Source: ANME-2 cluster archaeon (GTDB lineage Archaea > Halobacteriota > Methanosarcinia > Methanosarcinales > Methanocomedenaceae). Taken from it: a DNA stretch of 64,000 bases. The number at the start of each line of letters is the position of its first letter. Positions within the stretch are counted from its first letter, which is position 1. Of this stretch, positions 1,106 to 17,101 are shown piece by piece. The position numbers and the translations under genes were made by a program. The notes beneath the pieces are model-generated. The model ran no database searches and was not told the DNA's origin. It was given only the letters and a program-made list of their open reading frames with translations. Where the stretch lies: the NCBI GenBank assembly GCA_014237145.1, contig JAAXOC010000089.1, forward strand, positions 6,324 through 70,323. Reading direction: 5' to 3'.

Positions 1106-1561
1106 CTATTTACTGTTTAACAGACTCTCGACCTTGATGGGTGTCATCTCCCCATGGTATTCTTCGTTCTCCACAACCACCGGACCAAGGGCACAGGCAC
1201 CTACACAGTTAACGGTCTCAAGTGTATACTCGCCGTCGGCTGTGGTATCACCTGCCTTGATCTCCAGTTTTCGCTCCAGTTCTTCCAGCACTTTTTTCGA
1301 ACCCCTGACATGGCAGGCAGTACCCATGCATACGTGTATCTGCTGCTTGCCTTTGGGTTTTAGGCTGAACGCCTTGAAAAAAGTAGCCACGCCGAAGACC
1401 TGGACCCTGGAGATATCCAATCTCTGAGCCACATATTCCAGTGACTCTTCAGGCAGGTAATTGTACTTTGCCTGGATGTCCTGTAATATGGATATCAGCG
1501 AACCTGGTTCGGCATTATACTCATCTATTATTGAATCCAGTTTGGATTCGTTAGCAGTCAT
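1106..1561 (-). CDS. NuoE/HoxE-like thioredoxin-like [2Fe-2S] ferredoxin subunit
   Basis: 151 aa. Cys pattern HVCMGTACHVRG...VNCVGACALGP is typical of the 24-kDa subunit family. It lies directly upstream of the NuoF-like gene on the same strand. Confidence 0.85.
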   Translation of the reverse strand: MTANESKLDSIIDEYNAEPGSLISILQDIQAKYNYLPEESLEYVAQRLDISRVQVFGVATFFKAFSLKPKGKQQIHVCMGTACHVRGSKKVLEELERKLEIKAGDTTADGEYTLETVNCVGACALGPVVVENEEYHGEMTPIKVESLLNSK

Positions 1562-3840: not shown

Positions 3841-4458
3841 TTACATATTTTTAAGTTTTTCGTAGAGTTCGTTGACATTGAGAAGGAAAATATCATTAGC
3901 ACTTTTGATCAGTTCTTGGGAACACTTAGCTTGAGTAAAAACCTTTCCCTCACCTAACTCGATCCAAAATGGAGGTACGCTTTTCATTTCGTGAACCATG
4001 CCACCCGACATATCAGGCGCTGCATATAAAACTTTGTTGACCATTGAAGTTATTAGCCGTACCAAACACATGGGACAAGGTTCTAGGGACGAATACAGTT
4101 GGTAGCCTTCCAGTTCAGTGAGATCTTGGTGAGTGTCTTCAAACTTATCCATAACCACCATTTCAGCATGTCGATCACTACGAAAATATGGATTGAAAAT
4201 TTCGTTGTGACCTTGAACAACCACATTTCCACTCCCATCTATCAAAACACATCCAACGCCAAAATTACCATCGTTCACAGCCCTCAATGCCAGCACATTC
4301 GTAAGCCATATGTAAATATCATCTGTGTATTCGTGATTGAATTGATAATCCATTAGCTGACTTTTCCATTTTTCAATTCGGTCGGTCGTTGGATCGATTT
4401 GCGCAAGTTCATTTAACCCTGATTCGATGATCTGTTCATCAGTCATTGTAAAACCCAT
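3841..4458 (-). CDS. CMP/dCMP-type zinc deaminase family protein (nucleoside, nucleotide or tRNA deaminase-like)
   Basis: 205 aa with the zinc motifs DRHAEM and EPCPMC. Confidence 0.7.
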   Translation of the reverse strand: MGFTMTDEQIIESGLNELAQIDPTTDRIEKWKSQLMDYQFNHEYTDDIYIWLTNVLALRAVNDGNFGVGCVLIDGSGNVVVQGHNEIFNPYFRSDRHAEMVVMDKFEDTHQDLTELEGYQLYSSLEPCPMCLVRLITSMVNKVLYAAPDMSGGMVHEMKSVPPFWIELGEGKVFTQAKCSQELIKSANDIFLLNVNELYEKLKNM

Positions 4459-4707
4459 CCCATGTAATCATGTGTAACAACACCTTTGACAAATCTGTTG
4501 TGCAAATAATATAGTTTTTATGATATAAATCATACCCTGACGTTATAAAAATCTTACGATTCACCACTTATTAACTAAACATTTACATCTCGGCCAAATG
4601 ACCCATAATATAAACCGAAGACACTTTGTTATAAAAAGTTGTAATATGTCTTTCAGATAAAATTTACAGCAAATTTGCCAGTTGGAATAAAGGAGAACTA
4701 CACTAAT

Positions 4708-6060
4708 ATGAAAGCCACAAAAATCGTGATCATCGGTCTTGGCGTAAGCGGCTTTATCGCCGCAAAGACTGCAAAGAAAGTAAATCCCGATGTGCAGATA
4801 ACGATAATCGACCAGAAGGAGTATGACATGTTTTCGCCATGCGGGCTGCCTTTTGTGATGGAGGGTGTAATCGATGAGTTCGATGAACTCATACACAGCC
4901 TCCCGCTGGAAAAAATGAACATGGTCAAACTTTTGAAGCACAGGGCAGTGTCCATCGATTCCGGGAACAAGTTCGTAACTGCTGTGGATATTGAAACAAG
5001 CGAAGAAAAAACCATTCCCTACGATTCGGTAATAATCGCAACAGGATGTTTTCCATTCATACCTCCGATCCCGGGTGCACATGAACTGTTGAATAAGGGA
5101 GTCTTTGTGGTAAGCAACCCCGAAAATGCAAAACAGATCGTTGATTACTCAAAGGACATATCCTGTGCCGTTGTAGTCGGCGCGGGTGCGATCGGTCTTG
5201 AAACTGCTGCCGCAATTGCAGCACATAATATTGATTTGACAGTTGTGGAGATGCTGTCCCATGCATTCCCGCGAGCGATCGACCCTGATATTGCAAAAGT
5301 CCTAGAGAGATCACTGAAGAAATCCGGCATCAAGCTCATGATGAGCGCCACTGTTGAGAAGGTTTCAGGTAATGATGGGGTAACATCTGTAACTGTAAAT
5401 GGTAAAAGCATCCCTGCTGATATGGTTATCATGGCATCCGGTGTACGTGCCAGCTGGGACCTGGCAAAGGATGTGGGATGCGAACCTGGAAACTGGGGTA
5501 TTAAGACAAATGCAAAAATGGAGACCAGCATTGCCGGGATATACGCAGCAGGTGACTGTGTAGAGACCGTAAGCCCGATAAACCACAAACCATGGATGTC
5601 ACAGCTTGCAACAACTGCATACCGCCAGGGGATCGCGGCAGGAGCGAATGCGGCTGGCGGATATGAGACGTACGACGGGTCTCTTACGACCTTTGTTTCA
5701 GTCGTTGGTTCGATGGAAATTGCAGCAACCGGTTTTAACCAGTTCTTTGCCAAATCCGCGGGATATGAGGTTGTCGCCGGAAAGGCAAGCGGCTTAACCA
5801 GACCTGAGTGGTATCCAGGGGCAAAGGAAATCACAGTCAAGGTCCTGGCAGATGCCAGAACAGCAAGGATAATAGGCGGTCAGGCAGTCGGTGAAGAAGG
5901 CGCAGCATCGCGGGTGAATTTGATATCGCTTGCGATCAAAGGTAATATGGACCTGCACGACCTCTATGGCGCAGAATTTGCATACTGTCCTGCTGTGTCT
6001 GAGACCTATGATCCTTTGTCAAAGGCATGTGAGTTCGCTATACGCAAGATGAAGAAATAG
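4708..6060 (+). CDS. Pyridine nucleotide-disulfide oxidoreductase, CoA-disulfide reductase/NADH oxidase class
   Basis: The ORF track starts at TTG 4675. I prefer ATG 4708 (MKATKIVIIGLGVSG), which is preceded by AAGGAG. FAD GxGxxG motif, single redox Cys in FSPCGLPF, second Rossmann motif VVVGAGAIGLE. Confidence 0.8.
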   Translation: MKATKIVIIGLGVSGFIAAKTAKKVNPDVQITIIDQKEYDMFSPCGLPFVMEGVIDEFDELIHSLPLEKMNMVKLLKHRAVSIDSGNKFVTAVDIETSEEKTIPYDSVIIATGCFPFIPPIPGAHELLNKGVFVVSNPENAKQIVDYSKDISCAVVVGAGAIGLETAAAIAAHNIDLTVVEMLSHAFPRAIDPDIAKVLERSLKKSGIKLMMSATVEKVSGNDGVTSVTVNGKSIPADMVIMASGVRASWDLAKDVGCEPGNWGIKTNAKMETSIAGIYAAGDCVETVSPINHKPWMSQLATTAYRQGIAAGANAAGGYETYDGSLTTFVSVVGSMEIAATGFNQFFAKSAGYEVVAGKASGLTRPEWYPGAKEITVKVLADARTARIIGGQAVGEEGAASRVNLISLAIKGNMDLHDLYGAEFAYCPAVSETYDPLSKACEFAIRKMKK

Positions 6061-6068
6061 ATATTTCT

Positions 6069-6348
6069 TCTAGTGTCAAGTCAACAATACAATATCGCTA
6101 GATATATTATCTGACACTGTTCCATTTCCCAGTTATTTTTAAGACGCAGATTTACACTGATTTACGCAGATTTAAGGTTGCATCTGAGTAACCTGCACGC
6201 CCTTAAGGCGTAGCAGGCATTCACTTCCCGCGGAAGTGAATGTATCAGTGTAAATCTGAGTCTAATATTATTATTGAAATAATTTGATTTTAGAATTGTG
6301 CCCTATTCCCTTCATAATCTGACACTTTGATGTTGACTTGACACTAGA
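6069..6348. mobile_element. MITE-like non-coding element bounded by perfect 18-bp terminal inverted repeats
   Basis: TCTAGTGTCAAGTCAACA at 6069-6086 and its exact reverse complement at 6331-6348. Nested palindromes inside: CAGATTTACACTGAT 6147-6161 pairs with ATCAGTGTAAATCTG 6244-6258, and a central hairpin CATTCACTTCCCGCGGAAGTGAATG lies at 6218-6242. No ORF. Confidence 0.5.
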
Positions 6349-6402
6349 TAGTGTGGGCAAATTTACACGATTTAAGCTGTTGAGGATAAAATTATCTTTG
6401 CC

Positions 6403-6497
6403 TTCTTAGCGCCCTTTGCGGTGAATTAATCTAAACATCAATGAAGACGACTAAGTTTATCATATAACACCGCAAAGTCCGCAAATGGCGCGAAGAA
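6403..6497. repeat. Imperfect inverted repeat (word-repeat hairpin, TTTGCGG words)
   Basis: TTCTTAGCGCCCTTTGCGGTG at 6403-6423 pairs with the reverse complement of CACCGCAAAGTCCGCAAATGGCGCGAAGAA at 6468-6497. Confidence 0.5.
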
Positions 6498-6636
6498 TCC
6501 AATAGTTTGGCTATCATACCCACTCAATGTAAAAGAGAGCTAGAAATAGTCTTGTTCAGCCTCTGATAAAAAGATGGAATCGAGAATAAGAAACTTTGTT
6601 ATACTATTATCTACGTAAAATGAAACCGGTGATCAT

Positions 6637-7383
6637 ATGGAAAAATGGCGGGTCATTGATTTTGGAAAGGTTAACATAAGGTATATGATGGCAATGAACG
6701 AAGCCATCCTGAAATGCGATGAGGGAAACACCCTGATATTCTGGGACCCCACAAAATCCATCATCCTTGGGTATTTCCAGAAGGCTGATGTGGAACTAAA
6801 CCTTGAGCGGTGCAAGGATTACACGATCGTACGCCGCACAAGCGGCGGTGGTTTCGCGTATTCGGATGATCGGGGACGGCAGATCAACTATGGTGTTATC
6901 GGGACAATAGACGATAAACGGTTCCCGATCGATGTTACGGACTCGTACCATCAGATACTTGGCATGCTTATAGAGACCCTGCGCGAGTACGGCTTGAATG
7001 CGGCTTTCAGACCCATAAACGACATTGTTGTTGACGGCAAGAAGATATCTGGTAATGCGCAGACCAGATGGAGTGGAAAACTACTCCAGCATGGTACACT
7101 ACTACTGGATTTCGATATTAAGGAAATGCTTCGCCTCACAAATATCCCGCTTGAGAAGATAAGCGATAAACAGGTTGCCTCTATTGAGGAAGGGATGACA
7201 TGGATGGATAAGGAACTCCCTGAAAAAGTGGATATGAGAGAGGTCAAGAAAGTAATACGCCGCAAATTCGGGGAGATATTCGGTGTGGAACTGATCGATT
7301 CAAAACCAAGCGAGAGCGAGGTAAAGATGGCGCAGGAACTGTTACCTAAGTACGAATCAGAGAAATGGAACTACAGGCTGTAA
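6637..7383 (+). CDS. lplA: Lipoate-protein ligase A, catalytic (N-terminal) domain only
   Basis: 248 aa. RRTSGGGFAY motif, GKKISGNAQ (adenylate-binding Lys region), LQHGTLLLD, and a C-terminal KYESEKW end typical of the LplA catalytic domain. No fused C-terminal domain. Confidence 0.85.
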   Translation: MEKWRVIDFGKVNIRYMMAMNEAILKCDEGNTLIFWDPTKSIILGYFQKADVELNLERCKDYTIVRRTSGGGFAYSDDRGRQINYGVIGTIDDKRFPIDVTDSYHQILGMLIETLREYGLNAAFRPINDIVVDGKKISGNAQTRWSGKLLQHGTLLLDFDIKEMLRLTNIPLEKISDKQVASIEEGMTWMDKELPEKVDMREVKKVIRRKFGEIFGVELIDSKPSESEVKMAQELLPKYESEKWNYRL

Positions 7384-7495
7384 AGTAAATGAAGTAAAAA
7401 TAAAAAAGCAGTAGCTCTTTGGATTAGCTATTATTTCACAATAAAGTTCATGCATCAAGTGAATTGCTATAAAAAAACAAAGGAGATCTGCCTTA

Positions 7496-7912
7496 TCATC
7501 TTGATGCAAGATCTTCTTCAAACCACGGTTTAATATCATCCCCATGCACGAGTTTTTCCAGATCAGTCTCCATATCAGATGGCTCGATCACAATCAGCCA
7601 ACCTTCTTCATACGGGTCTTCTGCCATCTGTTCAAGGTCGTCTTCGATATCTTCGTTCACCTCAATAACCGTGCCACTAACAGGCATGGTAAGCCCGCCC
7701 ACCCATTTTGCGGATTCCAGTGACCCGAATGCTTCACCGGCTTCGAATTCATCATCTTCCACCGGAAGGTCGATAAACTCAATCGTTCCGACAGCGGTGG
7801 CGCCGAATGCATCCATTCCTGCTCTCACATTCCCGTCATCCTCAACCTTTGCCCAGACATGGTCTTTAGTATAATGAAGGTCATCAGGCATTTTGTATCC
7901 TTCGATCTCCAT
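7496..7912 (-). CDS. GcvH-like lipoyl-carrier protein 1
   Basis: 138 aa. YTKDHVWAKVEDDG start, then FGSLESAKWVGGLTMPVSGTVIEVNEDI...DPYEEGWL. The Lys sits at the canonical ESVKA position. Confidence 0.8.
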   Translation of the reverse strand: MEIEGYKMPDDLHYTKDHVWAKVEDDGNVRAGMDAFGATAVGTIEFIDLPVEDDEFEAGEAFGSLESAKWVGGLTMPVSGTVIEVNEDIEDDLEQMAEDPYEEGWLIVIEPSDMETDLEKLVHGDDIKPWFEEDLASR

Positions 7913-7969
7913 TGAATTATCCTCCTTTATCTATAGATAGATCATTGGTGTGTTTTCATATGTACGCAA

Positions 7970-8392
7970 TTAATATCCTGCATAGCGTTCCCGCTCTTTT
8001 GCTATCAATTCACCGTAATACGCAGCCGCATCACTGGCAGTCATCAAGCCGGTGCCCTCATGATCACCCTTGACCTCGACCATGACGATATTATATGGGT
8101 CGCTGTTAATAATGTTCGGGTCATCCCAGAGATCCTCATTGACGCTCACAACAGTAGACTCAAACGGAAGTGATATCTGCGATACAGCTTTGATTGTCTC
8201 ATATGCGATTATCAAGTCATCCTTCGGAATCACCTCGCCGACTTCAGGCAGGTCGATGTGTACGATCTCTTTTGAAAGCGACTGCCCAAGTTCTGTGATA
8301 CCGAGCTGAAACCTGTCCTCATGAGGCTTTACCCACACATGTGTTTTTAAATACAATCTATTTTCAGGGAACTCAAAATCTTCAACTTTCAT
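7970..8392 (-). CDS. GcvH-like lipoyl-carrier protein 2 (divergent paralog)
   Basis: 140 aa. YLKTHVWVKPHED, then AYETIKAVSQISLPFESTVVSVNEDLWDDPNIINSDPY. A candidate lipoyl-Lys is present. Confidence 0.7.
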   Translation of the reverse strand: MKVEDFEFPENRLYLKTHVWVKPHEDRFQLGITELGQSLSKEIVHIDLPEVGEVIPKDDLIIAYETIKAVSQISLPFESTVVSVNEDLWDDPNIINSDPYNIVMVEVKGDHEGTGLMTASDAAAYYGELIAKERERYAGY

Positions 8393-8431
8393 GAATTAGC
8401 CTCTTGCTTTTCTCTTTTACTTACTACACCA

Positions 8432-9328
8432 TCATTTTTTTGTTTCGATTTGAATGCTAAGCGTCTCACCACACTGCGGCAGGTATTCACCATACCGAGT
8501 AGGAATTAATTTTATTAAAGGCTTACCGAAAAATAAGATAAACGATACCCCGGCGGCATCTATCATGCGGTTTTTTCCATCTGATACCCTTAAATCCACA
8601 CTGGATGAGTGTACCATGTGCCAGTTCCCACTGCTTTTAAAGGTGTCAAACGGCGGCACAGTCCTGCTTTCACCGATCAAAGCGAACCTGTGCAGGGCGT
8701 GCTCACCAGTCGGGATGAATCCATCGAGCAGGTAACCGCCAACAGCATAACCATTGATAGCGCCGCTGCGACTGTGATCCGGGCAGTCGATAAGTGCAAA
8801 TCGCCTATCGGAAAACACCACTTCACCTGTAAAACCAAAGACATTACCATCTTCAGCCATGCCACAACCAACCTTTTTAACCGCACCAACAGGCACATCA
8901 AGCAGCATGTTGTTGCTCGCACGCACATAATCGTCAGGCGTGCGCACTTCAACATGCATGTGAGGGAAGTTCCAGAAATAGTAGTAACCGCTTCTGATGA
9001 ATGTGCCAAACTCTTCACCTGTGCGCACGCGGTCCCCTATTTCCACATCCGGCTTCACATGCATGATCTTTACAATAAACCCCTTGCAGCTAATCGCAGT
9101 TAAGTATTCCTTGAAATCGCGGTCCTTGAAGGGTGTGGGAGTATCGAATTCCCTGATATTCACAACCTCACCGTCAACAGGTGAGTACGCAGCCGAACCG
9201 AAGTCGCCGTATGCGATGTCTACCGCGCTGCCTGTCTCGTGTGCCGCAAACGGGCTTTTGAAAAACGAGAGTGCAGCGTCATCCGGCGCCATTAGTTCGA
9301 TGTTTTGATATGAAGCTGCAAGTTTCAT
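8432..9328 (-). CDS. Cytoplasmic M23/LytM-like (duplicated-hybrid-motif) domain protein, function unknown
   Basis: 298 aa, no signal peptide. HETGSAVDIAYGDFGSAAYSPVDGEVVNI ... IMHVKPDVEIGDRVRTGEEFGTFIRSGYYYFWNFPHMHVEV follows the M23 layout (H..D, G.V, HxH). The H-to-D spacing is non-canonical. Confidence 0.45.
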   Translation of the reverse strand: MKLAASYQNIELMAPDDAALSFFKSPFAAHETGSAVDIAYGDFGSAAYSPVDGEVVNIREFDTPTPFKDRDFKEYLTAISCKGFIVKIMHVKPDVEIGDRVRTGEEFGTFIRSGYYYFWNFPHMHVEVRTPDDYVRASNNMLLDVPVGAVKKVGCGMAEDGNVFGFTGEVVFSDRRFALIDCPDHSRSGAINGYAVGGYLLDGFIPTGEHALHRFALIGESRTVPPFDTFKSSGNWHMVHSSSVDLRVSDGKNRMIDAAGVSFILFFGKPLIKLIPTRYGEYLPQCGETLSIQIETKK

Positions 9329-9339
9329 TAAATCACCTC

Positions 9340-10323
9340 TTACAACTCCACATTATAGGAACAACACATGTTATCGACCTCATGGATATCCAGCCCGATC
9401 TCAGCGCATAATTGATACGCGCTCCGGCTCGGGACTGCGATCCTGTCGATCCCGCTCAATATCGCACATTCATCGAGCCGGGAGCGGTATCTCCCGCCAG
9501 GGCGCACGCAGCTTAAGGACAAGGGTGTTTGCGGGAATTCCTGCCTCGCCTTTGCGATCACCGATACAACATCCTCAAGCGCAGGAGGCAGTGTATCTGC
9601 ACAAGCTGTATTTTTTGTGGGAATAAATACCACTATAACGACAACATCCGGATCGTATTTCTTGATCATCTCAATCGCCCTGAACTCGCAGTCAAGCGCC
9701 CCGTTGTTCAATCCTGCGATGATATGCGGTGCGATGGGTATCCCTGCATCGGTAAGAAACCTGAGCGTGTTCTCGTAGTCGCTTACCGTATTCGGCAAAC
9801 CCAGTATCCCTGAGATTACGGCATCGCTCCCGATGCAGTCAACCAGTGCCATATCCAGCCATGTGGCAAGGGACCTTGCCTGCTCCTGTGTGATAATGCC
9901 AGTGTGGGCGCTCATTTTCAGATGAGTGTCATCCTTGATCTGCCTGATCTCATCTGAAAGTTCGTATGTCGGAACCGAGCCGTCAAGTTTGCTGCCGCCT
10001 GAGAGCAGGACCCCGCTGCGTCCCCTCTTTGCAAGATTTACAACTGCGGCACGGAGCTTGCCGCCACTGCCGTCAAGCATGTGTTCAAGATAGTGTTTTT
10101 CGCAGTGTTTGCAGTTCAATTCGCAGTCGGTGCCTGTGACTGAGACCGGGGTGAATGGCTCGTTGAAAAAGAGTATGGTGTTTGAAAATGAGTCCAGTCT
10201 GATCTTAAAGGATCTCAACATCTCTTTTTTTGCTGCTTCGCTAATATCCAGACCTTTTATTTTCTCCGGAACACGGTCAAGGTACACCCCGCCGTCTGAT
10301 GCTGTCATTCGTCGTCTCTCCAC
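9340..10323 (-). CDS. Radical SAM enzyme, type A (candidate LipS-type lipoyl synthase component)
   Basis: 327 aa. CX3CX2C motif in SVTGTDCELNCKHC, also LLSGGS, SAHTG and a C-terminal CC (NMCCSY). Paralog of 12639..13613. Confidence 0.7.
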   Translation of the reverse strand: MERRRMTASDGGVYLDRVPEKIKGLDISEAAKKEMLRSFKIRLDSFSNTILFFNEPFTPVSVTGTDCELNCKHCEKHYLEHMLDGSGGKLRAAVVNLAKRGRSGVLLSGGSKLDGSVPTYELSDEIRQIKDDTHLKMSAHTGIITQEQARSLATWLDMALVDCIGSDAVISGILGLPNTVSDYENTLRFLTDAGIPIAPHIIAGLNNGALDCEFRAIEMIKKYDPDVVVIVVFIPTKNTACADTLPPALEDVVSVIAKARQEFPQTPLSLSCVRPGGRYRSRLDECAILSGIDRIAVPSRSAYQLCAEIGLDIHEVDNMCCSYNVEL

Positions 10324-10376
10324 TATTTCACAATTCCATTATTCGTATCCATTTTAATAAGCATGGTATTTTGACC

Positions 10377-10440
10377 GGATTTACAGGATTTACAGGATGT
10401 TGACGTTGCGGTATATCCTGTCGATCCTGTTAATCCTGTC
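10377..10440. repeat. Word-repeat hairpin (ACAGGAT words) between two radical SAM genes
   Basis: GGATTTACAGGATTTACAGGAT at 10377-10398 faces ATCCTGTCGATCCTGTTAATCCTGTC at 10415-10440. Confidence 0.5.
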
Positions 10441-10481
10441 TAATAATTTTTAAATTAACCTTATATTTGAAGTGGATACCA

Positions 10482-11480
10482 TTATTCCACTATTCCAAGC
10501 TGCTCTTTTATCATCTTGATCTCATCCGCATCCGGATTCATTGGAAAATTGAACGTCTCATGGTGCGTCTCTGTGGCATACGGGCGGTTGCAGTCAGGGC
10601 ACCCTGTTGTCTTGAATGCATCCCCTACCTCCACATAGTGCAATATCCTGGCACGGGATATCCCGAAATCCACCACCTTCCCGTCCCTGAAGGTCATATC
10701 TTCAAAGGATGCCAACCCCTTGCGGATCAAGTATGCGCCTAACTGCACTGTGCGGTAGTGATTGACATTCAGGTTTGCAGGCACGTTCCGGGTTCCGGGC
10801 AGATGCGTATATGCGAACAGTGCTGAATAAACACCATCAGCGTGCAGTACATCTATTACCCCGAGCGCATCCCTGGCACTCTCTCCCATGCCGATGATAA
10901 GATGCGTGCCAACCGATCCCCTGCCAAAGATACGAACCGCGCGCCTGATACCGTCAAGGTGGGTATCCCAGTTATAGATACTATCTGCCTCTTTGCCTTT
11001 GATCCTACTGAACAGCTCAGGACTGCACGCATCCAGCGGGACCACCAGTTCATCAACTCCCATGCCCTTTAATGCAGCGTATTTTTCATCACTTAACGGA
11101 AATACGGATAGCGATATCGGGATCTGGCTTGTTTTTCGAATGCGGCTGATGAGGTACGTCGTATCCTGCCACATCTTAGCATACATTGCGGTCTGGATGC
11201 ACGCACGCATGAGGTAGCCGCGCTCGTATGCAATCCCCAGCCTTCGCACCACTTCGTCAAGGTCTGAAGGGATGTACTGTCCGCGTGCGATCTGTTTCAT
11301 ATCCCCATTAGCACCCGCCGCCTGCGAGCAGAAGCGACAGTTTGCCTGACAGCGCTTATCGGTGTATATCTGCAGATATGCGGTTGTAGGCGGCGCATCC
11401 ATTAGCACGAGTTCTATACCGAGCACTCCGAGCGTGCCAATGGAGGCGCGTACTTTTTTGGTGAGTGGTGAGGTTTGCAT
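10482..11480 (-). CDS. Radical SAM enzyme, type B (BioB/LipS-like; candidate lipoyl synthase component)
   Basis: 332 aa. CX3CX2C motif in TDKRCQANCRFCSQ. Additional conserved-looking Cys residues at RACIQT, DACSPE and C-terminal TGCPDC could bind an auxiliary cluster. Confidence 0.7.
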   Translation of the reverse strand: MQTSPLTKKVRASIGTLGVLGIELVLMDAPPTTAYLQIYTDKRCQANCRFCSQAAGANGDMKQIARGQYIPSDLDEVVRRLGIAYERGYLMRACIQTAMYAKMWQDTTYLISRIRKTSQIPISLSVFPLSDEKYAALKGMGVDELVVPLDACSPELFSRIKGKEADSIYNWDTHLDGIRRAVRIFGRGSVGTHLIIGMGESARDALGVIDVLHADGVYSALFAYTHLPGTRNVPANLNVNHYRTVQLGAYLIRKGLASFEDMTFRDGKVVDFGISRARILHYVEVGDAFKTTGCPDCNRPYATETHHETFNFPMNPDADEIKMIKEQLGIVE

Positions 11481-11678
11481 AATGGATCACTGGATTGGTT
11501 GATGATCGGTTGATTAAAAATTATTTTACTTTCAAATATTTTATAAAGTTTTTGACTGCAGATGGATGTAAGATGTCACGAAGCCTGGATTTTGCTAACG
11601 TTCATATCCGGGGCATCTCAAGGGGCATGAGGTTTACAGTAAAAAAGGTAACATATTATGAAGACATATGTTCAGTGT

Positions 11679-12068
11679 TTAGTTTATATCTGTGGCTACA
11701 CGGTCATTAATCTCAATAGAATTAGTTAAATTTTTTACAATTTCTTTACTTTTAATAATATTTAATTGTGCTAGTTTTTTCACTATCATTCTTTTATTTA
11801 AGGTAAATATTTTTGTTGGCTTTACTCTGCTTTCATAATACAAATTACCGCTGTCTAAATCTTCATTTACAATCTTTACACTCTGATCATAATTTCTTGG
11901 ATTGCTTGTAATAGCACAACAAATTACATCTTCATTATTTGAATTATATTCATGATTTGAAATAATTATACTGGGTCTTCTTTTCGTTTGTGACAGATCT
12001 GAAAAAGGAAATGGAATTAGAATTATATCCCCTTGGTTAACATTCATTCCACTGGTTATCGTATTCAT
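11679..12068 (-). CDS. mazF: MazF/PemK-family toxin
   Basis: 129 aa. GDIILIPFPFSDLSQTKRRPSIIIS is the hallmark PemK N-terminal segment. The gene is very AT-rich compared with its flanks. Confidence 0.7.
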   Translation of the reverse strand: MNTITSGMNVNQGDIILIPFPFSDLSQTKRRPSIIISNHEYNSNNEDVICCAITSNPRNYDQSVKIVNEDLDSGNLYYESRVKPTKIFTLNKRMIVKKLAQLNIIKSKEIVKNLTNSIEINDRVATDIN

Positions 12069-12309
12069 TATCCCAAAATTTAATTAATGCGTTCTCTGCG
12101 ATTGGTGATTTCTCGTTTTCTAAATGTTCTACTTTCTCTTTTAATTTCGTTATTTCAGAAAATAAAAATGGAATAATATCTTCTTTATCGAATGATATCT
12201 TTACAGTTACTTTATATTCTTTCGTAACTTCATAAGATATCTCATTGTCCACTTTGCTATTATCGATAAATAAAGTCTCTGGATTTAATGTTTTAGCAAG
12301 ACTCATCAA
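12037..12309 (-). CDS. Putative cognate antitoxin
   Basis: 90 aa. Overlaps the MazF start, has an acidic/aromatic C-terminal tail (FWDNEYDNQWNE), and shares the AT-rich composition. Confidence 0.4.
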   Translation of the reverse strand: MMSLAKTLNPETLFIDNSKVDNEISYEVTKEYKVTVKISFDKEDIIPFLFSEITKLKEKVEHLENEKSPIAENALIKFWDNEYDNQWNEC

Positions 12310-12580
12310 AATCCTCCTCCATGAACTTTATGAAAAATTCCATTATATCGCTGTTTTGGGATTCAATGTGTAATTGTTGTTTTTTGATTTCTTCACTGGT
12401 GTGGTGCGATAATATAATTGGAATTCCTTTTTTTTCACCATCAATTTTTATTTCGTTAATAAATACAACGGCTATCGGAAAAATTTTTGTCTCAAATTTG
12501 GAAATTCTCTCAAGAAATTCTTTTTTAAATATTGAATTTAACAATTTGTTTTCAATTAAGACCTTTTCAGCTTTTGCCAT
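12293..12580 (-). CDS. Hypothetical protein in the AT-rich cassette
   Basis: 95 aa. Overlaps the next gene by 17 nt on the same strand with the same composition. No motif recognised. Confidence 0.3.
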   Translation of the reverse strand: MAKAEKVLIENKLLNSIFKKEFLERISKFETKIFPIAVVFINEIKIDGEKKGIPIILSHHTSEEIKKQQLHIESQNSDIMEFFIKFMEEDFDESC

Positions 12581-12638
12581 TCTAGTTTGTTTTGTTATTA
12601 AGTTATATAAAATTATATGAAATTCAAGCAGGAAACTG

Positions 12639-13613
12639 TCATTTCAAATGTAAATCCCCATCTATGCGGGTCGAATCCTGCGGCAGGACACCGCAGCAGG
12701 TGCCGAAATACTCGATCCCGTACCCTTCTGCATGTGCATATTTGACAAAGCTGCGCGTGGGAAGTGCAACATTAAAAACACCGCTCTCAAGTGCAATCCG
12801 TTCTATCAGTTCGCGGTCGCGCCCGCTCGAATGGGCGCAGCCGAGTGTTATCGGGATATCAGGGAACAGTTCGCAGGCCCGGCAGAAGACCTCTGCAAAG
12901 TCGTACGGGTCGGGTTTAACCGATGACATTGCTGTGCCTGCAACCGACATGAGTCCTGTTATTACGACCGTGGTCGCTTTGATGTGCCGGATGAGTTCCA
13001 GCGCACGAAGTTCCCCGCACATCTTACCAAAATCAAGACCCACGCACACATGCGGGAAGATATTGATCCCGGCATCGGAAATAGCCTGAAGGCTTTTTAA
13101 GTAGTCATCCTCGGTAACGTCCAGGCCGTACACCCGCCGCACAGTACCGGCATTCCCGACCACATCGAATGCGATGCCGTCAAGACCGCTGTCCTTTAAA
13201 GCGCGCGCTTCGTCAGGTGTAATGAATCCGGTGTGAGCGATCACGATCAGGTCGGTCTGCTGCTTGATACTTTTGATGTATTGGGCCGCAGCCGCTGTGG
13301 GGACTTTTCCTTTTGTGTCGCACCCGCCTGTTATGAGCATACCTTTGGCACCGTTGTTTGCAAGACTGCGTGCAATCTGCTCTAGCCTTTCAGGCGGACC
13401 CACAGGGATCAGGCGGGAGAGCAGCCTGCCGCCGCAGTGCTTGCAGTTCAACTGGCACCTGCTGCCTGTGAGTGATATGGAAGGAAAGTTGTTCGATGTG
13501 ATGAAGATGTTGAGTTTACTACCTGACTTTACAAGGGACTGCTGTTTAGATTTACGCATACGCTTCTGGATAGCAGGGTCAAGCGTATCAATGTCAGGGT
13601 TCAGGCTGCTCAT
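12639..13613 (-). CDS. Radical SAM enzyme, type A' (paralog of 9340..10323)
   Basis: 324 aa. SLTGSRCQLNCKHC, LITGGC, IAHTG and a C-terminal CC (GTCCGV), collinear with the type A protein. Confidence 0.7.
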   Translation of the reverse strand: MSSLNPDIDTLDPAIQKRMRKSKQQSLVKSGSKLNIFITSNNFPSISLTGSRCQLNCKHCGGRLLSRLIPVGPPERLEQIARSLANNGAKGMLITGGCDTKGKVPTAAAAQYIKSIKQQTDLIVIAHTGFITPDEARALKDSGLDGIAFDVVGNAGTVRRVYGLDVTEDDYLKSLQAISDAGINIFPHVCVGLDFGKMCGELRALELIRHIKATTVVITGLMSVAGTAMSSVKPDPYDFAEVFCRACELFPDIPITLGCAHSSGRDRELIERIALESGVFNVALPTRSFVKYAHAEGYGIEYFGTCCGVLPQDSTRIDGDLHLK

Positions 13614-13634
13614 ATCCGGATGCTGCCGCTGTTC

Positions 13635-13925
13635 TTACGATTCGACTGCCTGCATGATGGATGTCGTGAAGTCTTCGGGAGCAGTCCCGGGTGCTGTTAT
13701 ACCTTCGGATTCATAGACCGAGCGCACGGCAAAGAGTACGGAATCAGAAGTGGCGTTGGCACCTTTTAAGGATTGTGCGATCTGTTCGATTGCGGTTTCG
13801 GGAAAAAGGAAGAAGTCTCCTGAAAATGCGATGTCTTCGATTTGGTTGCCTTCTAACTTGACGAATGCGCGGATGAGACCGCCTTTGGATTTGTGTCTGC
13901 CCTCTTTGTATCCTTCGTAGCTCAT
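13635..13925 (-). CDS. lplB: Stand-alone lipoate-protein ligase C-terminal domain protein (LplB-like)
   Basis: 96 aa. HKSKGGLIRAFVKLEGNQIEDIAFSGDFFLFPE matches the LplA C-terminal accessory domain layout, which is a separate polypeptide in some archaea. Confidence 0.7.
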   Translation of the reverse strand: MSYEGYKEGRHKSKGGLIRAFVKLEGNQIEDIAFSGDFFLFPETAIEQIAQSLKGANATSDSVLFAVRSVYESEGITAPGTAPEDFTTSIMQAVES

Positions 13926-13970
13926 GGTGTGCCTCCGGAGTTGTTGTAGTTCAATTATGGTTATGCTATT

Positions 13971-14153
13971 TTAATGTACTTGCGGTTTGTTTCTCTGCCT
14001 CCGCCTCTTATCCTCCATCCTGTAGATCAAGTCCCTGCTCCTGTGCTTTTCATTCAAACGCTGCGGCAGTTCGATCTCCGCCCCCGTCAGCACACTGCGC
14101 CGCGCCTCTACCCCGAGCGCATCCTCAAATCCGCGTTTCAAAATCCCTTTCAC
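13971..14153 (-). pseudogene. Remnant of the 3' end of a second lplA catalytic-domain gene
   Basis: ILKRGFEDALGVEARRSVLTGAEIELPQRLNEKHRSRD parallels the intact LplA end IRRKFGEIFGVELIDSKPSESEVKMAQELLPKYESEKW. It sits 45 nt upstream of lplB, and no upstream catalytic part remains. Confidence 0.55.
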
Positions 14154-14364
14154 ACGATTTTCTTGATAAATAATTTGACAATGTGCATTTTAAGAAACAT
14201 TATGTGATGATGAATTTGATTTTGACCCCCCATCTACTGGTGGATATAGCATTTCCGGTGATTTTCCTCGCAAAATTCAAAATATATTAATTCATTGATA
14301 TGTATTTAAAACATTTTATACTTTCTGCATACTTAATGCAAGACTAAAAATTCAATAAGTAAGA

Positions 14365-14625
14365 TCAAAAAAATGCGGTTGGAAACAAAACGGGAATTGC
14401 TGGCAGCTGCACGCCTTTTGCCACGGGCTCATCACCCATGATGTCAGCTAATATCTTGAGATCCTCGAACCTGCCATTGGTACAGGAACCCACATCCCCG
14501 ATCAGGTGCAGGATGAGATCCTTACTGTACACCTTATCAGGCAGGCGCCTGTTCACCTTGAACCACAGCCTTCCTGTGGAAAAAGCACCAAGTGAACCGT
14601 ATGTGCAGTTTTGAACGTTTCAATT
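14365..14625 (-). pseudogene. Decayed, internally deleted fragment of the hacA/leuC gene found intact at 17102..18379
   Basis: [20 protein letters not shown] is fused directly to [26 protein letters not shown]. In the intact gene these two segments are more than 100 aa apart. DNA at 14556-14620 matches 17880-17990 with deletions at short direct repeats. Confidence 0.75.
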
Positions 14626-14642
14626 CAGGCGCAATTTGATGA

Positions 14643-14990
14643 TCATTCAAACTCTATAATAGCTTTTTTTGCACCGATCGGAGTTATTGAAGCCTGCGTA
14701 CCCTTTTCAATATGATACGACTCTCGAAGCTCCTTTGGGAGCCGTAACAGTAGTACTTGTCCATTCTCGCTTATTTTTCTTTTGTATGAAACATGCCCTC
14801 TGGGTGCAATGCCAAGCACTGATTTTAGTCCTTTCTCTATTTTGTGTATGGAATCCGGATGATTGAAGTATATATTTCTTCCCGTACTTTTGTGCTTTCT
14901 TACAAGAACGTCTGTAAAAACTATAGGAATGCCATAGTTCTCTATTACAACATCTTCGTATACTTCCTCAAACTCGTCATTATTTTCCAT
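14643..14990 (-). CDS. Hypothetical protein, possible AbrB/SpoVT-like C-terminal domain
   Basis: 115 aa, in the AT-rich island. The C-terminal LRLPKELRESYHIEKGTQASITPIG..KAIIEF resembles a looped-hinge-helix pattern (weak). Confidence 0.35.
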   Translation of the reverse strand: MENNDEFEEVYEDVVIENYGIPIVFTDVLVRKHKSTGRNIYFNHPDSIHKIEKGLKSVLGIAPRGHVSYKRKISENGQVLLLRLPKELRESYHIEKGTQASITPIGAKKAIIEFE

Positions 14991-15074
14991 ATTTTCACTT
15001 CCGTAATGTACGTTTTTTCTTTCGATTGAGCAAAGTTATCACAACAATAAGACCTTGATCTGACTTTTCGATGC

Positions 15075-15371
15075 CTATAATACATGATAGATATGCTCAT
15101 TAAATTCCGATTCGCATAGGTATCTTGTTGGAAAATATTCAGTATCATGCAGTTCTTTTCTTTTTATCTCGGGATTTATCAAAATCTGCTTTATAAACTC
15201 AAATAACTGAAAAGGGTTTATATCCCATCTATCATATGCCCTGTTGTTTTTATAGATATGTTCATCAATACCGATGCGTTCTTCAGATGCTAATTTTTTT
15301 ATGAGCTCCCGGATTTGCTTCTTTTCTTCAGTATCCAGATGTACTATATTGTACGATTCGCCCTTAAGCAT
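15075..15371 (-). CDS. Hypothetical protein
   Basis: 98 aa ORF in the AT-rich island. No motif recognised. Confidence 0.35.
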   Translation of the reverse strand: MLKGESYNIVHLDTEEKKQIRELIKKLASEERIGIDEHIYKNNRAYDRWDINPFQLFEFIKQILINPEIKRKELHDTEYFPTRYLCESEFNEHIYHVL

Positions 15372-15662
15372 CGTACAAAAAAGGTAGTTTTTAGTATTTA
15401 AAAATGCGCCTGAATTTGGACTTGGGACAAAAATGCCGACACATAGCGGTAGTTTTTTGCGATAAATCTGTCAAAAAAAGCCGCAACGTATTGGATCCAA
15501 AAATAATTTTGTCCAAAGGCCCCTGAATTTCAATTTGAAGATTGTTATTTTGGCTTCTCATAACCTTTCAGAGCATGAATCTACCATCTAAAGTCAACGA
15601 CCTTGGACTTCCGCTTCGCTTTGTCCCGGGCATCCGAGCAGATTCTCATAAATTATAATAAT

Positions 15663-16391
15663 TTATTGGAATTTAACATCATTGAAAGATTCAGGTGGTC
15701 CAATATCATTCAATCCAAGATCAATTCTATTTGTTCTTTCACCCTTCTCGAAAATAACCTCAATTATCACAAGACGATTCTGATCGATGTTTTTATTTTT
15801 GCGAAGCTTATTTGTTATTTCTGAAATTCTCTTAATCCGTTCATTTCGGTATCCAGATGTTTTTCTATAGAATGAATGAACAATAAAGTAAAGTAGGAAA
15901 TACTTATTTGGCACTGCTTTTTTTAGTTTCCATAAGTCTTTTTCTAAATGCTTTACTGCCGTTTTTGCTTGTTGGGTGCTCCTATTTAGAAAATATTCTC
16001 GTGAATTGAGGTTCATAAGCCCTTCATCGATAAACTTACCAAGAAACATCTCTAGTCCAAATATAGGCTCCTCTTGATTTCCATTCAACATCGTAATAGC
16101 TAGATCAATGTATGCAGTTTTATTTTTCTTCTCTTGTCCGTCTCCATATTCATCCCCCTTTACTTGAACAGGATATTCTCGGCGGATATGGATGGGACCT
16201 TTGGGATTTTTTTTCTTTAAACATTCTTGAAGCTTAAAATGAATGTCTTTTTCATTAAAATATTTAAAAGGATCTTTAATAAAACAACATTCAATTTCAT
16301 ATATACATTGTTTCATTGTATCAAAAATTTCACTCTGTTTCGGTGGCATATTTTCAATTCCAAAATGCTTTTTTTTATATGACTTTTTCAT
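15663..16391 (-). CDS. Hypothetical protein, possible restriction-endonuclease-like fold
   Basis: 242 aa. IRREYPV ... AYIDLAI ... FGLEMFLGK loosely recalls a PD-(D/E)xK arrangement, but the ExK element is not canonical. Confidence 0.35.
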   Translation of the reverse strand: MKKSYKKKHFGIENMPPKQSEIFDTMKQCIYEIECCFIKDPFKYFNEKDIHFKLQECLKKKNPKGPIHIRREYPVQVKGDEYGDGQEKKNKTAYIDLAITMLNGNQEEPIFGLEMFLGKFIDEGLMNLNSREYFLNRSTQQAKTAVKHLEKDLWKLKKAVPNKYFLLYFIVHSFYRKTSGYRNERIKRISEITNKLRKNKNIDQNRLVIIEVIFEKGERTNRIDLGLNDIGPPESFNDVKFQ

Positions 16392-16435
16392 ATCATTAAA
16401 TTTATTAATTCTGAGTTGCTTGATTTTTCTGATTT

Positions 16436-16732
16436 CTATTTACTACTTCTTCCGTAACTTCCAGTACTAAAGCCAATATTCTTAAAAAAAAGTTCTATTT
16501 GAGAAGTTGATAAATCTTGCTGTATTATTCCAAATGGACCTAATATTTCTTTCCAAACCCATTTTATAGGAAGTCGCTTTCCTTCTAAAGTCTCAACATA
16601 AGCTTTCATCGCCCTCATTCCTGGTGTTTTCCAATTTTTTTCATCTTCAATCCATATTGGGAAATCAGACATTCTCATTAGATGCTTTAACACCTTATTC
16701 CATTCTTGAGTGTATCCGTTTATTCTACTCAT
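16436..16732 (-). CDS. Hypothetical protein
   Basis: 98 aa ORF in the AT-rich island. No motif recognised. Confidence 0.35.
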   Translation of the reverse strand: MSRINGYTQEWNKVLKHLMRMSDFPIWIEDEKNWKTPGMRAMKAYVETLEGKRLPIKWVWKEILGPFGIIQQDLSTSQIELFFKNIGFSTGSYGRSSK

Positions 16733-17101
16733 TTATATTTCTCCAAATTATAGGCATAACGAAATTATAAAATATAATGCATAGATATTGAATTACATAA
16801 AATTTCATAGCCTATAATCTATTATGAAGCTAATGCCGTAAATATTTATCGGCTCTCAAATATTTTATAAAAATAGTTAATGCTATTGAATATTTTAATT
16901 ATTTATTGCCTATAATAATAGGTATATACTCAATTTAATCTTTTACAATTATCTAAACAGAAATCCTCCATCCTGCAGTCACTATACCCTTGACTTAACT
17001 ACCGTATGCCTGTACAAAATACCTGCCGCCCGTTTTTCCATTTCGTCCGTTAATACAGATTTTCATAATTTCCCCCTAACTATGAAACCACCAGCACCCA
17101 G

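Follow-up and report, generated by a model that had tools for sequence, protein, structure and literature searches.

What would an anaerobic methanotrophic archaeon do with a cluster of lipoate-assembly genes when no lipoate-dependent enzyme is encoded around it? The locus that raises this question lies in a 64,000-nucleotide stretch of DNA (the window) and was originally predicted to encode a pathway of a ligase and LipS1/LipS2 for dedicated GcvH-like carriers in a methanogen-type host. The DNA comes from a Methanosarcinales metagenome-assembled genome, more specifically that of an ANME-2 anaerobic methanotroph. Based on gene identities, conserved residues, synteny and purifying selection, we consider it probable that the locus is a conserved ANME-2 module by which two dedicated GcvH-family carriers are lipoylated de novo through Lpl(AB)-LipS1/LipS2.

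Gene content and conservation of the locus

All the elements listed in the original prediction are present at the positions given in Table 1, where they are identified by profile models (Pfam and NCBIfam, with curated cut-offs).

Table 1. Features of the locus, in window coordinates, with their main supporting matches
Feature	Position	Strand	Match or property
CoADR / NADH oxidase / persulfide reductase family flavoprotein	4708-6060	+	Pyr_redox_2 198 bits
LplA1, catalytic (large) subunit of the split ligase	6637-7383	+	PF21948 152.9 bits; TIGR00545 147.9 bits
GcvH-like carrier 1, K69, motif ESAKWVGGL	7496-7912	-	PF01597 107.9 bits
GcvH-like carrier 2, K68, motif YETIKAVSQ	7970-8392	-	PF01597 86.8 bits
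DUF8155 ("M23-like")	8432-9328	-	PF26482 (precomputed Pfam)
LipS1 (radical SAM A)	9340-10323	-	NF053742 249.2 bits (cut-off 230)
LipS2 (radical SAM B)	10482-11480	-	NF053743 274.8 bits (cut-off 270)
AT-rich insertion splitting the operon	11481-12638	-	GC 0.29
MazF/PemK toxin, within the AT-rich insertion	11679-12068	-	PF02452 61.7 bits
Two small ORFs in the AT-rich insertion	12037-12309, 12293-12580		without Pfam match
LipS1b (radical SAM A')	12639-13613	-	LipS1 model 217.9 bits, full length, below cut-off 230
LplB, small subunit of the split ligase	13635-13925	-	NF053749 71.6 bits (cut-off 65); PF10437 33.2 bits
LplA2, truncated pseudogene	13971-14168	-	tblastn against intact LplA2

The cluster is a conserved ANME-2 module and no peculiarity of one genome. 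Its order in ANME-2a and ANME-2c is LplA2-LplB-LplA1-LipS1b-LipS2-LipS1-DUF8155-GcvH2-GcvH1, and ANME-2d retains the core LipS1-DUF8155-GcvH2-GcvH1. Every module gene has a dN/dS of 0.04-0.18 against its relatives, which indicates purifying selection. In the present genome, the eight remaining module genes are intact full-length ORFs, 97-100% identical in three independent assemblies. Damage here appears limited to the edge of the module, namely the LplA2 remnant and the MazF cassette that splits LipS1b from LipS2, two genes whose matches lie only about 70 nt apart in three related loci (L007, L011 and L012). An AT-rich island at 14.6-17 kb abuts the module, and a hacA fragment lies at about 14389-14613.

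The split ligase and the three radical SAM enzymes

LplA1 keeps the ligase lysine motif GKKISGNAQ and has a dN/dS of about 0.08. Together with LplB, it would activate free octanoate or lipoate with ATP and attach the acyl group to K69 and K68 of the carriers. The suspected lplA remnant is real: positions 14016-14168 of the minus strand match residues 201-251 of a second LplA paralog at 51-57% identity (tblastn against the whole window, E about 1e-11 to 2e-13, with LplA2 of the related ANME-2c loci L011, L012 and L058 as queries). This pseudogene retains only about 51 C-terminal residues, with a faint trace of the motif (R)KI(S/T)GNA beside it at 14248-14271, and LplA2 is intact in the three query loci and in ANME-2a loci. 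A separate ligase for each carrier is made less plausible by the loss of LplA2 in this genome, and also by locus L005, where LplA2 is not upstream of LplB.

Radical SAM proteins A and B are full-length matches, above cut-off, to the curated models of LipS1 and LipS2, while the models of BioB, PylB and other radical SAM families reach at most 40 bits. The cluster ligands defined experimentally in LipS1 and LipS2 of T. kodakarensis are all kept in LipS1, LipS1b and LipS2 (PMC9585515). LipS1 keeps C67/C71/C74 as well as C272, C320 and C321, and all members of the LipS1 family have a His that aligns with H188 of LipS1b; the corresponding ligands of T. kodakarensis LipS1 are C27/31/34, C230, C276/277 and H159 (PMC9585515). 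For LipS2, 15 distinct orthologs all share C44/C48/C51, C94 and C294/C297. The T. kodakarensis homologs of LipS2 and LipS1 insert sulfur into C8 and C6, respectively (PMC9585515). By homology, the ANME-2 LipS2 would introduce sulfur into C8, with a sacrificial auxiliary [4Fe-4S] cluster as the source, and LipS1 would next act on C6.

The expectation of three radical SAM enzymes that include LipS1 and LipS2 holds with one adjustment, in that the third, LipS1b, is on its sequence an ancient LipS1 paralog. It is 31% identical to LipS1, from which it is separated as one of two deep clades, its own taking in members from ANME-2a, 2c and 2d; a recent duplicate or near-copy of A is thereby rejected. 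LipS1b (dN/dS 0.09-0.16) keeps every LipS1 cluster ligand and carries a further pair of invariant Cys (C98 and C190), which also occur in some single-copy Bathyarchaeia-like LipS1 proteins. It most likely performs a LipS1-type step and may serve one of the two carriers; such a specificity is suggested by the ancestral set of two catalytic ligase subunits, two LipS1-type enzymes, two carriers and a single LipS2.

The carriers and their possible partners

Both carriers keep a lysine at the lipoylation position, as originally noticed (K69 in ESAKW, K68 in ETIKAV), aligned with what we take to be the position-65 lysine of E. coli GcvH and invariant in 22 distinct orthologs of carrier 1 and 31 of carrier 2. 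They represent two distinct orthogroups kept across ANME-2. Carrier 1 scores 123.3 bits with the NCBIfam GcvH subfamily model PRK01202, above the cut-off of 117, and 111.1 bits with the equivalog TIGR00527, below the cut-off of 115.85; carrier 2 falls under both cut-offs. Source records annotate the orthologs as GcvH. Published HMMs assign the carriers to LbpA1 in some genomes and to GcvH in others (Tanabe et al., 2023; PMC10332631), and their membership of LbpA is tentative.

In line with the original reading that no lipoate-dependent enzyme is encoded nearby, no GcvP/T, E2, E3 or Hdr was found among the scanned ORFs of the window (most of at least 200 aa, a few smaller). No GcvP or GcvT adjoins the carriers in the ANME-2 loci with annotated flanking genes, no lipoate-dependent enzyme was found near related loci, and sHdr genes were found neither in the window nor in related loci. 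In the S3 table of Tanabe et al. (2023; PMC10332631), marine ANME-2a/b/c have LipS1/LipS2/Lpl with LbpA1 or GcvH and lack E2, dihydrolipoyl dehydrogenase (E3/L-protein) and sHdr, whereas LipA, E2 and E3 accompany the module in most genomes of Methanoperedens. The presence of lipoate genes in ANME-2 is already tabulated in this supplement; ANME are not discussed in the text of that paper. In the literature examined we found no link between ANME and lipoate, and no mention of glycine cleavage in ANME-2. This distribution, with the module in marine ANME-2 without E2, E3 or sHdr and with both pathways in Methanoperedens, supports the view that the carriers would be dedicated ones. Once lipoylated, they may work on their own as shuttles, of either the dithiol/disulfide or the sulfur type, and serve a client encoded at a distance.

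In ANME-2c-type genomes, the best candidate for a link between the carriers and NAD(P)H would be the adjacent CoADR/NOX-family flavoprotein. It scores 283 bits with the NCBIfam CoADR model, well under the cut-off of 579, its best PDB match is A. fulgidus NoxA-3 (6pfz, E 5e-67), and it has a single active-site Cys, in SPCGLP, and a dN/dS of 0.11-0.12. The gene adjoins LplA1 or GcvH1 in four loci (L007, L012, L014 and L055). This candidacy as an NAD(P)H-linked redox partner is weakened by a synteny found only in ANME-2c-type loci and by a family that normally uses CoA or persulfide substrates.

DUF8155, a candidate component of lipoate assembly

The DUF8155 protein matches the M23 model PF01551 weakly (23.2 bits, below cut-off). 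Its AF2 model (pLDDT 95.2) predicts an N-terminal M23/LytM-fold domain followed by a C-terminal beta domain whose fold is unknown, and the Foldseek matches of this model are LECT2, LysTt72, lysostaphin, LytM and ShyA. The N-terminal domain would have the fold of M23/LytM metallopeptidases (LytM, lysostaphin, ShyA) and of EnvC and LECT2, both non-catalytic. The conserved residues are H30, D37, H90 and H123-x-H125-x-E127; the conserved Asp, the HxH(xE) motif and a further invariant His are common to M23/LytM proteins, and we regard the His and Asp residues as a conserved putative metal site. Unlike M23/LytM proteins, DUF8155 has the extra C-terminal domain and is predicted to be cytoplasmic, no strongly hydrophobic segment having been found in it. 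Its first motif is H-x6-D, as opposed to HxxxD in catalytic M23 enzymes, and its genomic partners are lipoate-assembly genes and not cell-wall genes. Murein is not expected in the host archaeon.

In 43/43 ANME-2 loci, the gene ahead of DUF8155 on its strand is LipS1 (median gap about 8 nt), and lipoate genes lie within 2.5 kb of DUF8155 in 31 of the 32 ANME-2 loci with adequate flanks. Among Bathyarchaeia-like metagenome loci, 16/36 have LplA/LplB, sometimes with LipS1/LipS2, within the same distance, and DUF8155 also adjoins LplA/LplB in genomes with one LipS1 in view. We propose DUF8155 as a new candidate component of lipoate assembly. It is probably a zinc amidohydrolase whose target would be the N6-acyl-lysine bond on the carriers, and it could serve the proofreading, recycling or salvage of octanoyl/lipoyl groups. 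Since its motifs depart from those of catalytic enzymes and the first His of HxH is absent in Methanoperedens members, a non-catalytic adaptor role is also possible.

Alternative explanations

Could this be an ordinary, scattered gcv/lip locus, with one or both carriers as true H-proteins, P, T and L encoded elsewhere and the cluster doing housekeeping lipoylation? Carrier 1, which passes the GcvH subfamily cut-off and nearly the equivalog one, would fit, as would the GcvH annotation of the orthologs and the E2 and dihydrolipoyl dehydrogenase of most Methanoperedens. We nevertheless judge it unlikely, given two conserved carrier orthogroups of which one fails both GcvH models, the lack of GcvP/GcvT beside the carriers in annotated loci, the missing L-protein of marine ANME-2 in the S3 table and a literature in which we met no ANME-2 glycine cleavage. 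We hold it to be quite improbable that the LipS1 paralog thiolates a further or different carbon, or another acyl chain, yielding a non-canonical cofactor that DUF8155 could release from carriers acting as scaffolds and not as end users. Three sulfur-insertion-type enzymes where two suffice, the age, selection and extra Cys of LipS1b, and a hydrolase-like protein close behind LipS1 on the same strand with no client enzyme found would suit such a cofactor. However, LipS1b is a full-length LipS1 match with all ligands, its extra Cys recur in single-copy Bathyarchaeia-like proteins, DUF8155 accompanies LplA/LplB where one LipS1 is in view, and the sequence flanking the carrier lysine is strongly conserved, a pattern expected of end users docking with partners.

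Decay of the module into a non-functional state in this genome seems to us very improbable indeed, although the LplA2 remnant, the MazF insertion, the AT-rich island (on this reading, foreign DNA) and the hacA fragment favour it. The eight intact genes, their near-identity between assemblies and their low dN/dS argue against decay, and the MazF cassette has the orientation of the operon, so that the genes behind it could still be transcribed by read-through or from internal promoters. A ligase-plus-LipS1/LipS2 pathway for dedicated GcvH-like carriers remains the reading supported by the S3 pattern, the curated-model matches and the kept cluster ligands.

Comparison with known systems

Orphan GcvH-L and dedicated LplA2 operons of Firmicutes belong to the SirTM/macrodomain oxidative-stress system. 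Like the ANME-2 module, they combine a GcvH-like carrier and a ligase devoted to it, and they lack a partner from glycine cleavage; unlike them, the module has no sirtuin or macrodomain and would rely on de novo sulfur insertion instead of salvage only. The carriers resemble the glycine cleavage H protein in fold family and in their lipoyl-lysine motif, and carrier 1 is at the subfamily threshold; they differ from it as two paralogs with no linked P, T or L, in marine hosts without L-protein in the published table.

The sHdr-LbpA system (Cao et al., 2018; PMC6067878) likewise has two tandem GcvH-like lipoate-binding proteins with their own LipS1/S2-type genes. Sulfur oxidisers use LipS1/S2 for LbpA and have a LipA pathway as well, a co-existence also seen in Methanoperedens, and the carriers are presumably stand-alone shuttles; ANME-2 hosts, unlike these, are not sulfur oxidisers, and sHdr is scored absent in them. 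Finally, the Lpl(AB)-LipS1/LipS2 pathway (T. kodakarensis TK2109/TK2248; sLpl(AB)-LipS1/S2 of sulfur oxidisers; PMC9585515, PMC10332631) has in common with the module a ligase and two BioB-like radical SAM synthases, the radical SAM and auxiliary-cluster ligands, and the clustering of these genes with GcvH-like carriers. The ANME-2 version departs from it in a ligase split into LplA and LplB, ancestrally with two catalytic paralogs, in a second ancient LipS1 paralog and a cluster without LipT, and in DUF8155 as an integral part of a module whose hosts are anaerobic methanotrophs.

Results

An ORF check of the window found every ORF named in the original prediction, and profile searches supported its reading of the locus as a lipoate ligase acting with LipS1/LipS2 on GcvH-like carriers, the curated cut-offs for LipS1, LipS2 and LplB all being passed. 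The radical SAM proteins did not side with unrelated families, which would have spoken against that reading: BioB, PylB, ThiH and other radical SAM models gave at most 40 bits. The split ligase was confirmed by profile as an LplA catalytic domain carrying the lysine motif GKKISGNAQ and a separate LplB small subunit; the window LplA did not reach the curated 'LplA_large' exception model (131 bits against a cut-off of 480). The lplA remnant that had been proposed is genuine, since it matches a second LplA paralog, LplA2, which is intact in related loci and has decayed in the lineage of the window. Both LplA1 and LplA2 retain the lysine motif as (K/R)KISGNA.

Features of the lipoate locus and of neighbouring regions of the window
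Feature	Position	Strand	Profile match or character
NuoE-like [2Fe-2S] protein	1106-1561		
Glutamate-synthase-domain protein	2201-3790		
Flavoprotein	4708-6060		CoADR / NADH oxidase / persulfide reductase family
LplA catalytic domain (LplA1)	6637-7383	+	PF21948, 152.9 bits
GCV_H-domain carrier 1 (GcvH1)	7496-7912	-	PF01597, 107.9 bits
GCV_H-domain carrier 2 (GcvH2)	7970-8392	-	PF01597, 86.8 bits
DUF8155	8432-9328	-	PF26482
LipS1	9340-10323	-	NF053742, 249.2 bits, cut-off 230, model positions 5-268 of 268
LipS2	10482-11480	-	NF053743, 274.8 bits, cut-off 270, model positions 1-292 of 292
MazF cassette	11481-12638		AT-rich, ~1.1 kb
PemK/MazF toxin	11679-12068	-	PF02452, 61.7 bits, gathering score 23.1; 29% GC block
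LipS1b (second LipS1 paralog)	12639-13613	-	NF053742 full length (1-268), 217.9 bits, just below cut-off 230
LplB	13635-13925	-	NF053749, 71.6 bits, cut-off 65
LplA2 remnant	14016-14168	-	last ~51 residues of LplA2; 51-57% identity, E ~1e-11 to 2e-13
Aconitase/HacA-like fragment	~14389-14613		56-80% identity to the intact gene
AT-rich island	14389-17000		GC ~0.29-0.40
Island ORFs	14643-14990, 15075-15371, 15663-16391, 16436-16732	-	no Pfam match
Aconitase-family large subunit, intact	17102-18379		
PASTA-repeat protein, 581 aa	18687-20432		161 bits to PASTA region of Stk1-type kinases

The lipoate cluster is a conserved module of ANME-2 and no peculiarity of the window genome. An alignment of DUF8155, the gene first described as M23-like, was scanned against one genome per GTDB species and gave 54 loci, essentially all of them from ANME-2. 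The DUF8155 protein of the window has its nearest relatives in Candidatus Methanogaster (ANME-2c), ANME-2 cluster archaea, Methanocomedens (ANME-2a) and Methanoperedens (ANME-2d). Identical copies of the window proteins are found on contigs of GCA_014237115.1, GCA_014237495.1 and GCA_014237125.1, and other genes of the window, such as the gene of 4-HFC-P synthase, which acts in methanofuran synthesis, and that of a cytochrome c assembly protein, fit a cytochrome-containing member of the Methanosarcinales. In ANME-2a the order is LplA2-LplB-LplA1-LipS1b-LipS2-LipS1-DUF8155-GcvH2-GcvH1 (L032, L038, L040, L041, L045, L147). The ANME-2c order, complete in L012 and partial in L007, L011 and L058, where contig ends cut it, is LplA2-LplB-LipS1b-LipS2-LipS1-DUF8155-GcvH2-GcvH1, followed on the opposite strand by LplA1 and a pyridine-nucleotide disulfide oxidoreductase. 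Methanoperedens keeps a core of LipS1-DUF8155-(one ORF)-GcvH2-GcvH1, with LipS2 and LipS1b located elsewhere (L051, L043). Every module gene had a dN/dS of 0.04-0.18 against three relatives, ratios that are rough at saturated synonymous sites and still far below 1.

Two further features of the Methanoperedens loci were noted. On at least three contigs a 162-aa ORF without a Pfam match separates DUF8155 from carrier 2 and is read from the other strand (L059 10797-11285; L061 10797-11285). A Prok-JAB gene, of the JAB/MPN metallo-isopeptidase family, runs in the opposite orientation right up to the 3' end of carrier 1, an arrangement found in two distinct genomic settings (L059 12236-12634; L145 10430-10810); absent from the window, this gene would be a second Zn-isopeptidase-like gene beside a lipoyl carrier.

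Our strongest new finding is that DUF8155 is associated with lipoate genes both in ANME-2 and on Bathyarchaeia-type contigs. In ANME-2, LipS1 comes before DUF8155 in the same orientation at 43 of 43 loci, with a median gap of about 8 nt, and where the flanks are adequate, which is so for 32 loci, lipoate genes lie within 2.5 kb of DUF8155 in 31. Metagenome contigs were scanned separately with a non-ANME DUF8155 alignment, which recovered Bathyarchaeia-type contigs; there LplA/LplB occurred within the same distance in 16 of 36 loci with adequate flanks, several of which also had LipS1 and LipS2, and one Bathyarchaeia genome contig likewise placed DUF8155 beside lipoate genes. DUF8155 forms a small family (in a set of 1.84 billion proteins, 246 clusters at 50% identity) whose distant members belong to Bathyarchaeia and Promethearchaeia, and we found no paper that mentions it.

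An AlphaFold model of DUF8155 built on a 49-sequence alignment that included the distant members reached a pLDDT of 95.2 (a shallow alignment of 16 sequences gave an unusable 48.6). Foldseek searches with this model matched the N-terminal ~135 residues to the LytM/M23 fold, as in LECT2, LysTt72, lysostaphin, LytM, ShyA and the EnvC LytM domain; for LECT2, LytM, LytU, lysostaphin and EnvC the probability was 1.0 and the target-normalised TM-score 0.5-0.6 over ~115-150 columns. The same searches returned no convincing structural match for the C-terminal domain. Since DUF8155 has no strongly hydrophobic segment and Methanosarcinales are not known to have murein, a role in the cell wall is unlikely. 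Elsewhere in the window, a 581-aa archaeal protein combines PASTA repeats with a helix-hairpin-helix region; the usual ligands of PASTA domains are bacterial peptidoglycan precursors.

At only 31% identity, LipS1 and LipS1b fall into two deep clades within the LipS1 family, each with members from ANME-2a, 2c and 2d, and the LipS1 proteins of Bathyarchaeia-like contigs branch between them. This identity and the separate deep clades led us to reject LipS1b as a recent duplicate of LipS1, and we likewise rejected its assignment as a biotin synthase, because its next best model, BioB, reached 30 bits where that of LipS1 gave 218. The CX3CX2C motif and the further cysteine ligands (C67/71/74, C272 and C320/321 in LipS1; C53/57/60, C259 and C306/307 in LipS1b) are invariant among 45 and 14 sequences respectively, LipS1b has two more invariant cysteines, C98 and C190, and every aligned member of the LipS1 family has a histidine at the column of LipS1b H188. 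Mutagenesis of T. kodakarensis LipS1 assigned C230, C276, C277 and H159 as ligands of its auxiliary [4Fe-4S] cluster (PMC9585515), and both LipS1 and LipS1b keep the equivalents of these residues together with CX3CX2C. In LipS2, C44/C48/C51, C94 and C294/C297 are invariant in 15 distinct orthologs, where C94, C294 and C297 correspond to T. kodakarensis C85, C276 and C279. In that organism C8 is thiolated first by LipS2 and then C6 by LipS1 (PMC9585515); if the same order holds in ANME-2, LipS2 would act at C8 before LipS1 acts at C6. With this natural pair of LipS1 paralogs, the regiochemistry of sulfur insertion might become easier to dissect.

The locus has been interrupted more than once. 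The MazF cassette of the window separates LipS1b from LipS2, whose matches are ~70 nt apart in L007, L011 and L012. A search around the cassette for a target-site duplication gave no more than an 11-nt near-repeat that overlaps the start of LipS2 and is at chance level, and a Pfam search recognised no antitoxin family in the two small ORFs upstream of MazF. In L005 the same junction is split by ~3.8 kb (4200-7990) holding a class I methyltransferase and a short LipS2 fragment, so that it is broken in two related lineages by different insertions. Just beyond the LplA2 remnant lies a fragment of an aconitase/HacA-like gene that matches the intact aconitase-family gene further on, and between the remnant and that gene is an AT-rich island, which has the look of foreign DNA whose insertion cut LplA2 short.

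The flavoprotein near LplA1 has A. fulgidus NoxA-3 as its best PDB match, keeps the active-site cysteine and adjoins LplA1 or carrier 1 in four ANME-2c-type loci, which is no more than suggestive of a redox partner for the module. Two metagenome contigs from outside ANME (L127 2174-3487; L128 1311-2624) carry, ~1.2 kb upstream of their DUF8155 gene, a homolog with 32% identity. From position 3790 of the window to its start, and on upstream (L001 15539-20897), NuoE-like, NuoF-like and ferredoxin-domain genes form a cluster that looks like a flavin/FeS NAD(P)H-linked complex; it is flanked by two glutamate-synthase-domain proteins, and no link to the lipoate module was established.

Discussion

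The recognised uses of lipoate as a cofactor are in 2-oxoacid dehydrogenases, in glycine cleavage and, more recently, in sHdr sulfur oxidation. In line with the original prediction, the ORFs of the 64 kb window that were scanned include no GcvP/T, E2, E3 or Hdr gene, and none occurred in the annotated flanks of related loci. No Hdr-type gene was seen there that would link shdrC1B1AHC2B2 to lbpA/lip genes, and a search of the ANME-2a, 2c and 2d flanks for a client enzyme gave no partner, these flanks being unconserved between the clades and made of housekeeping genes. In the S3 table of Tanabe et al. 2023 (PMC10332631), within the rows considered here, sHdr is scored 0 for all ANME-2 genomes; marine ANME-2a/b/c have LipS1, LipS2, Lpl and LbpA1 or GcvH, and lack E2, dihydrolipoyl dehydrogenase (L-protein) and sHdr; the Methanomicrobiales rows are all empty. 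That marine ANME-2 lack 2-oxoacid dehydrogenases and sHdr, two kinds of lipoate client out of three known, is new and well supported.

The ordinary reading, that a glycine cleavage system elsewhere in the genome uses these carriers, carries some weight. Carrier 1 passes the NCBIfam GcvH subfamily model PRK01202 (123.3 bits, cut-off 117), and sequence searches of the PDB with both carriers returned canonical GcvH structures only, which does not separate an LbpA from a GcvH identity. Neither carrier reaches the GcvH equivalog TIGR00527 (111.1 and 83.2 bits for carriers 1 and 2, cut-off 115.85), and carrier 2 passes neither NCBIfam GcvH model. The two are distinct orthogroups with strongly conserved motifs, ESAKWVGGL and YETIKAVSQ, around a lipoyl-position lysine that is invariant in 22 and 31 distinct sequences; these lysines, K69 and K68, align with what we take to be the lysine at position 65 of E. 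coli GcvH.

The score of DUF8155 with the M23 peptidase family PF01551, 23.2 bits, is below the gathering score of 28.7, the HxxxD motif is replaced by H30-x6-D37, and the first histidine of the HxH motif (H123-M-H125 in the window) becomes V or L in Methanoperedens members; a non-catalytic adaptor is possible. H30, D37, H90, H125, E127, R129, R136 and K273 are invariant or nearly so, and in a profile-to-PDB alignment D37 and H123-x-H125-x-E127 fall on LECT2 D39 and its HVHIE motif, residues that presumably include the LECT2 zinc ligands. We infer that DUF8155 would be a metal-dependent amidohydrolase acting on the N6-acyl-lysine of the carriers. DUF8155, linked as it is to lipoate genes, is a new and concrete candidate member of the lipoate pathway of archaea.

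This type of pathway was known before, and published supplementary data already list it for ANME-2 without discussion; the main text of Tanabe et al. 2023 (PMC10332631) has no discussion of ANME, as far as the parts considered here extend, and nothing relevant in our literature search connected lipoate, lipoyl groups or glycine cleavage with either ANME or Methanoperedens. What is new is the architecture of the ANME-2 module, with its second LipS1 paralog and paired ligase subunits. Judged from the gene content, an eight- or nine-gene module under purifying selection, in hosts with no recorded 2-oxoacid dehydrogenases or sHdr, would imply an undescribed use of protein-bound lipoate, in marine ANME-2 that control marine methane flux.

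Taken together, one tentative reading, which we hold to be possible and rather unlikely as a whole, is that ANME-2 has a lipoyl-protein system with no classical client, in which the two lipoylated GcvH-like carriers would be free-standing redox or sulfur shuttles, coupled in ANME-2c to the CoADR/NOX-type flavoprotein, and DUF8155 would be an unrecognised LytM-fold N6-acyl-lysine amidohydrolase of archaeal lipoate metabolism. Such carriers would be analogous, and possibly related, to the LbpA of sHdr systems. In Methanogaster sp002503595 (ANME-2c), gene 6 of contig DASC01000116.1 is of LplA type too, the third of its kind and longer than the others (~353 aa; it may be a fused LplAB), and is assigned by the authors' tool to a partial 'mHdr' cluster in the relevant entries of supplementary file 10 of Tanabe et al. 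2023, which might hint at a link of lipoate ligase to heterodisulfide-reductase genes. Most Methanoperedens in the S3 rows considered (PMC10332631) have LipA, E2 and E3 on top of the module, an arrangement that resembles sulfur oxidisers, where the LipA route serves the classical enzymes and LipS1/S2 serve a dedicated LbpA.
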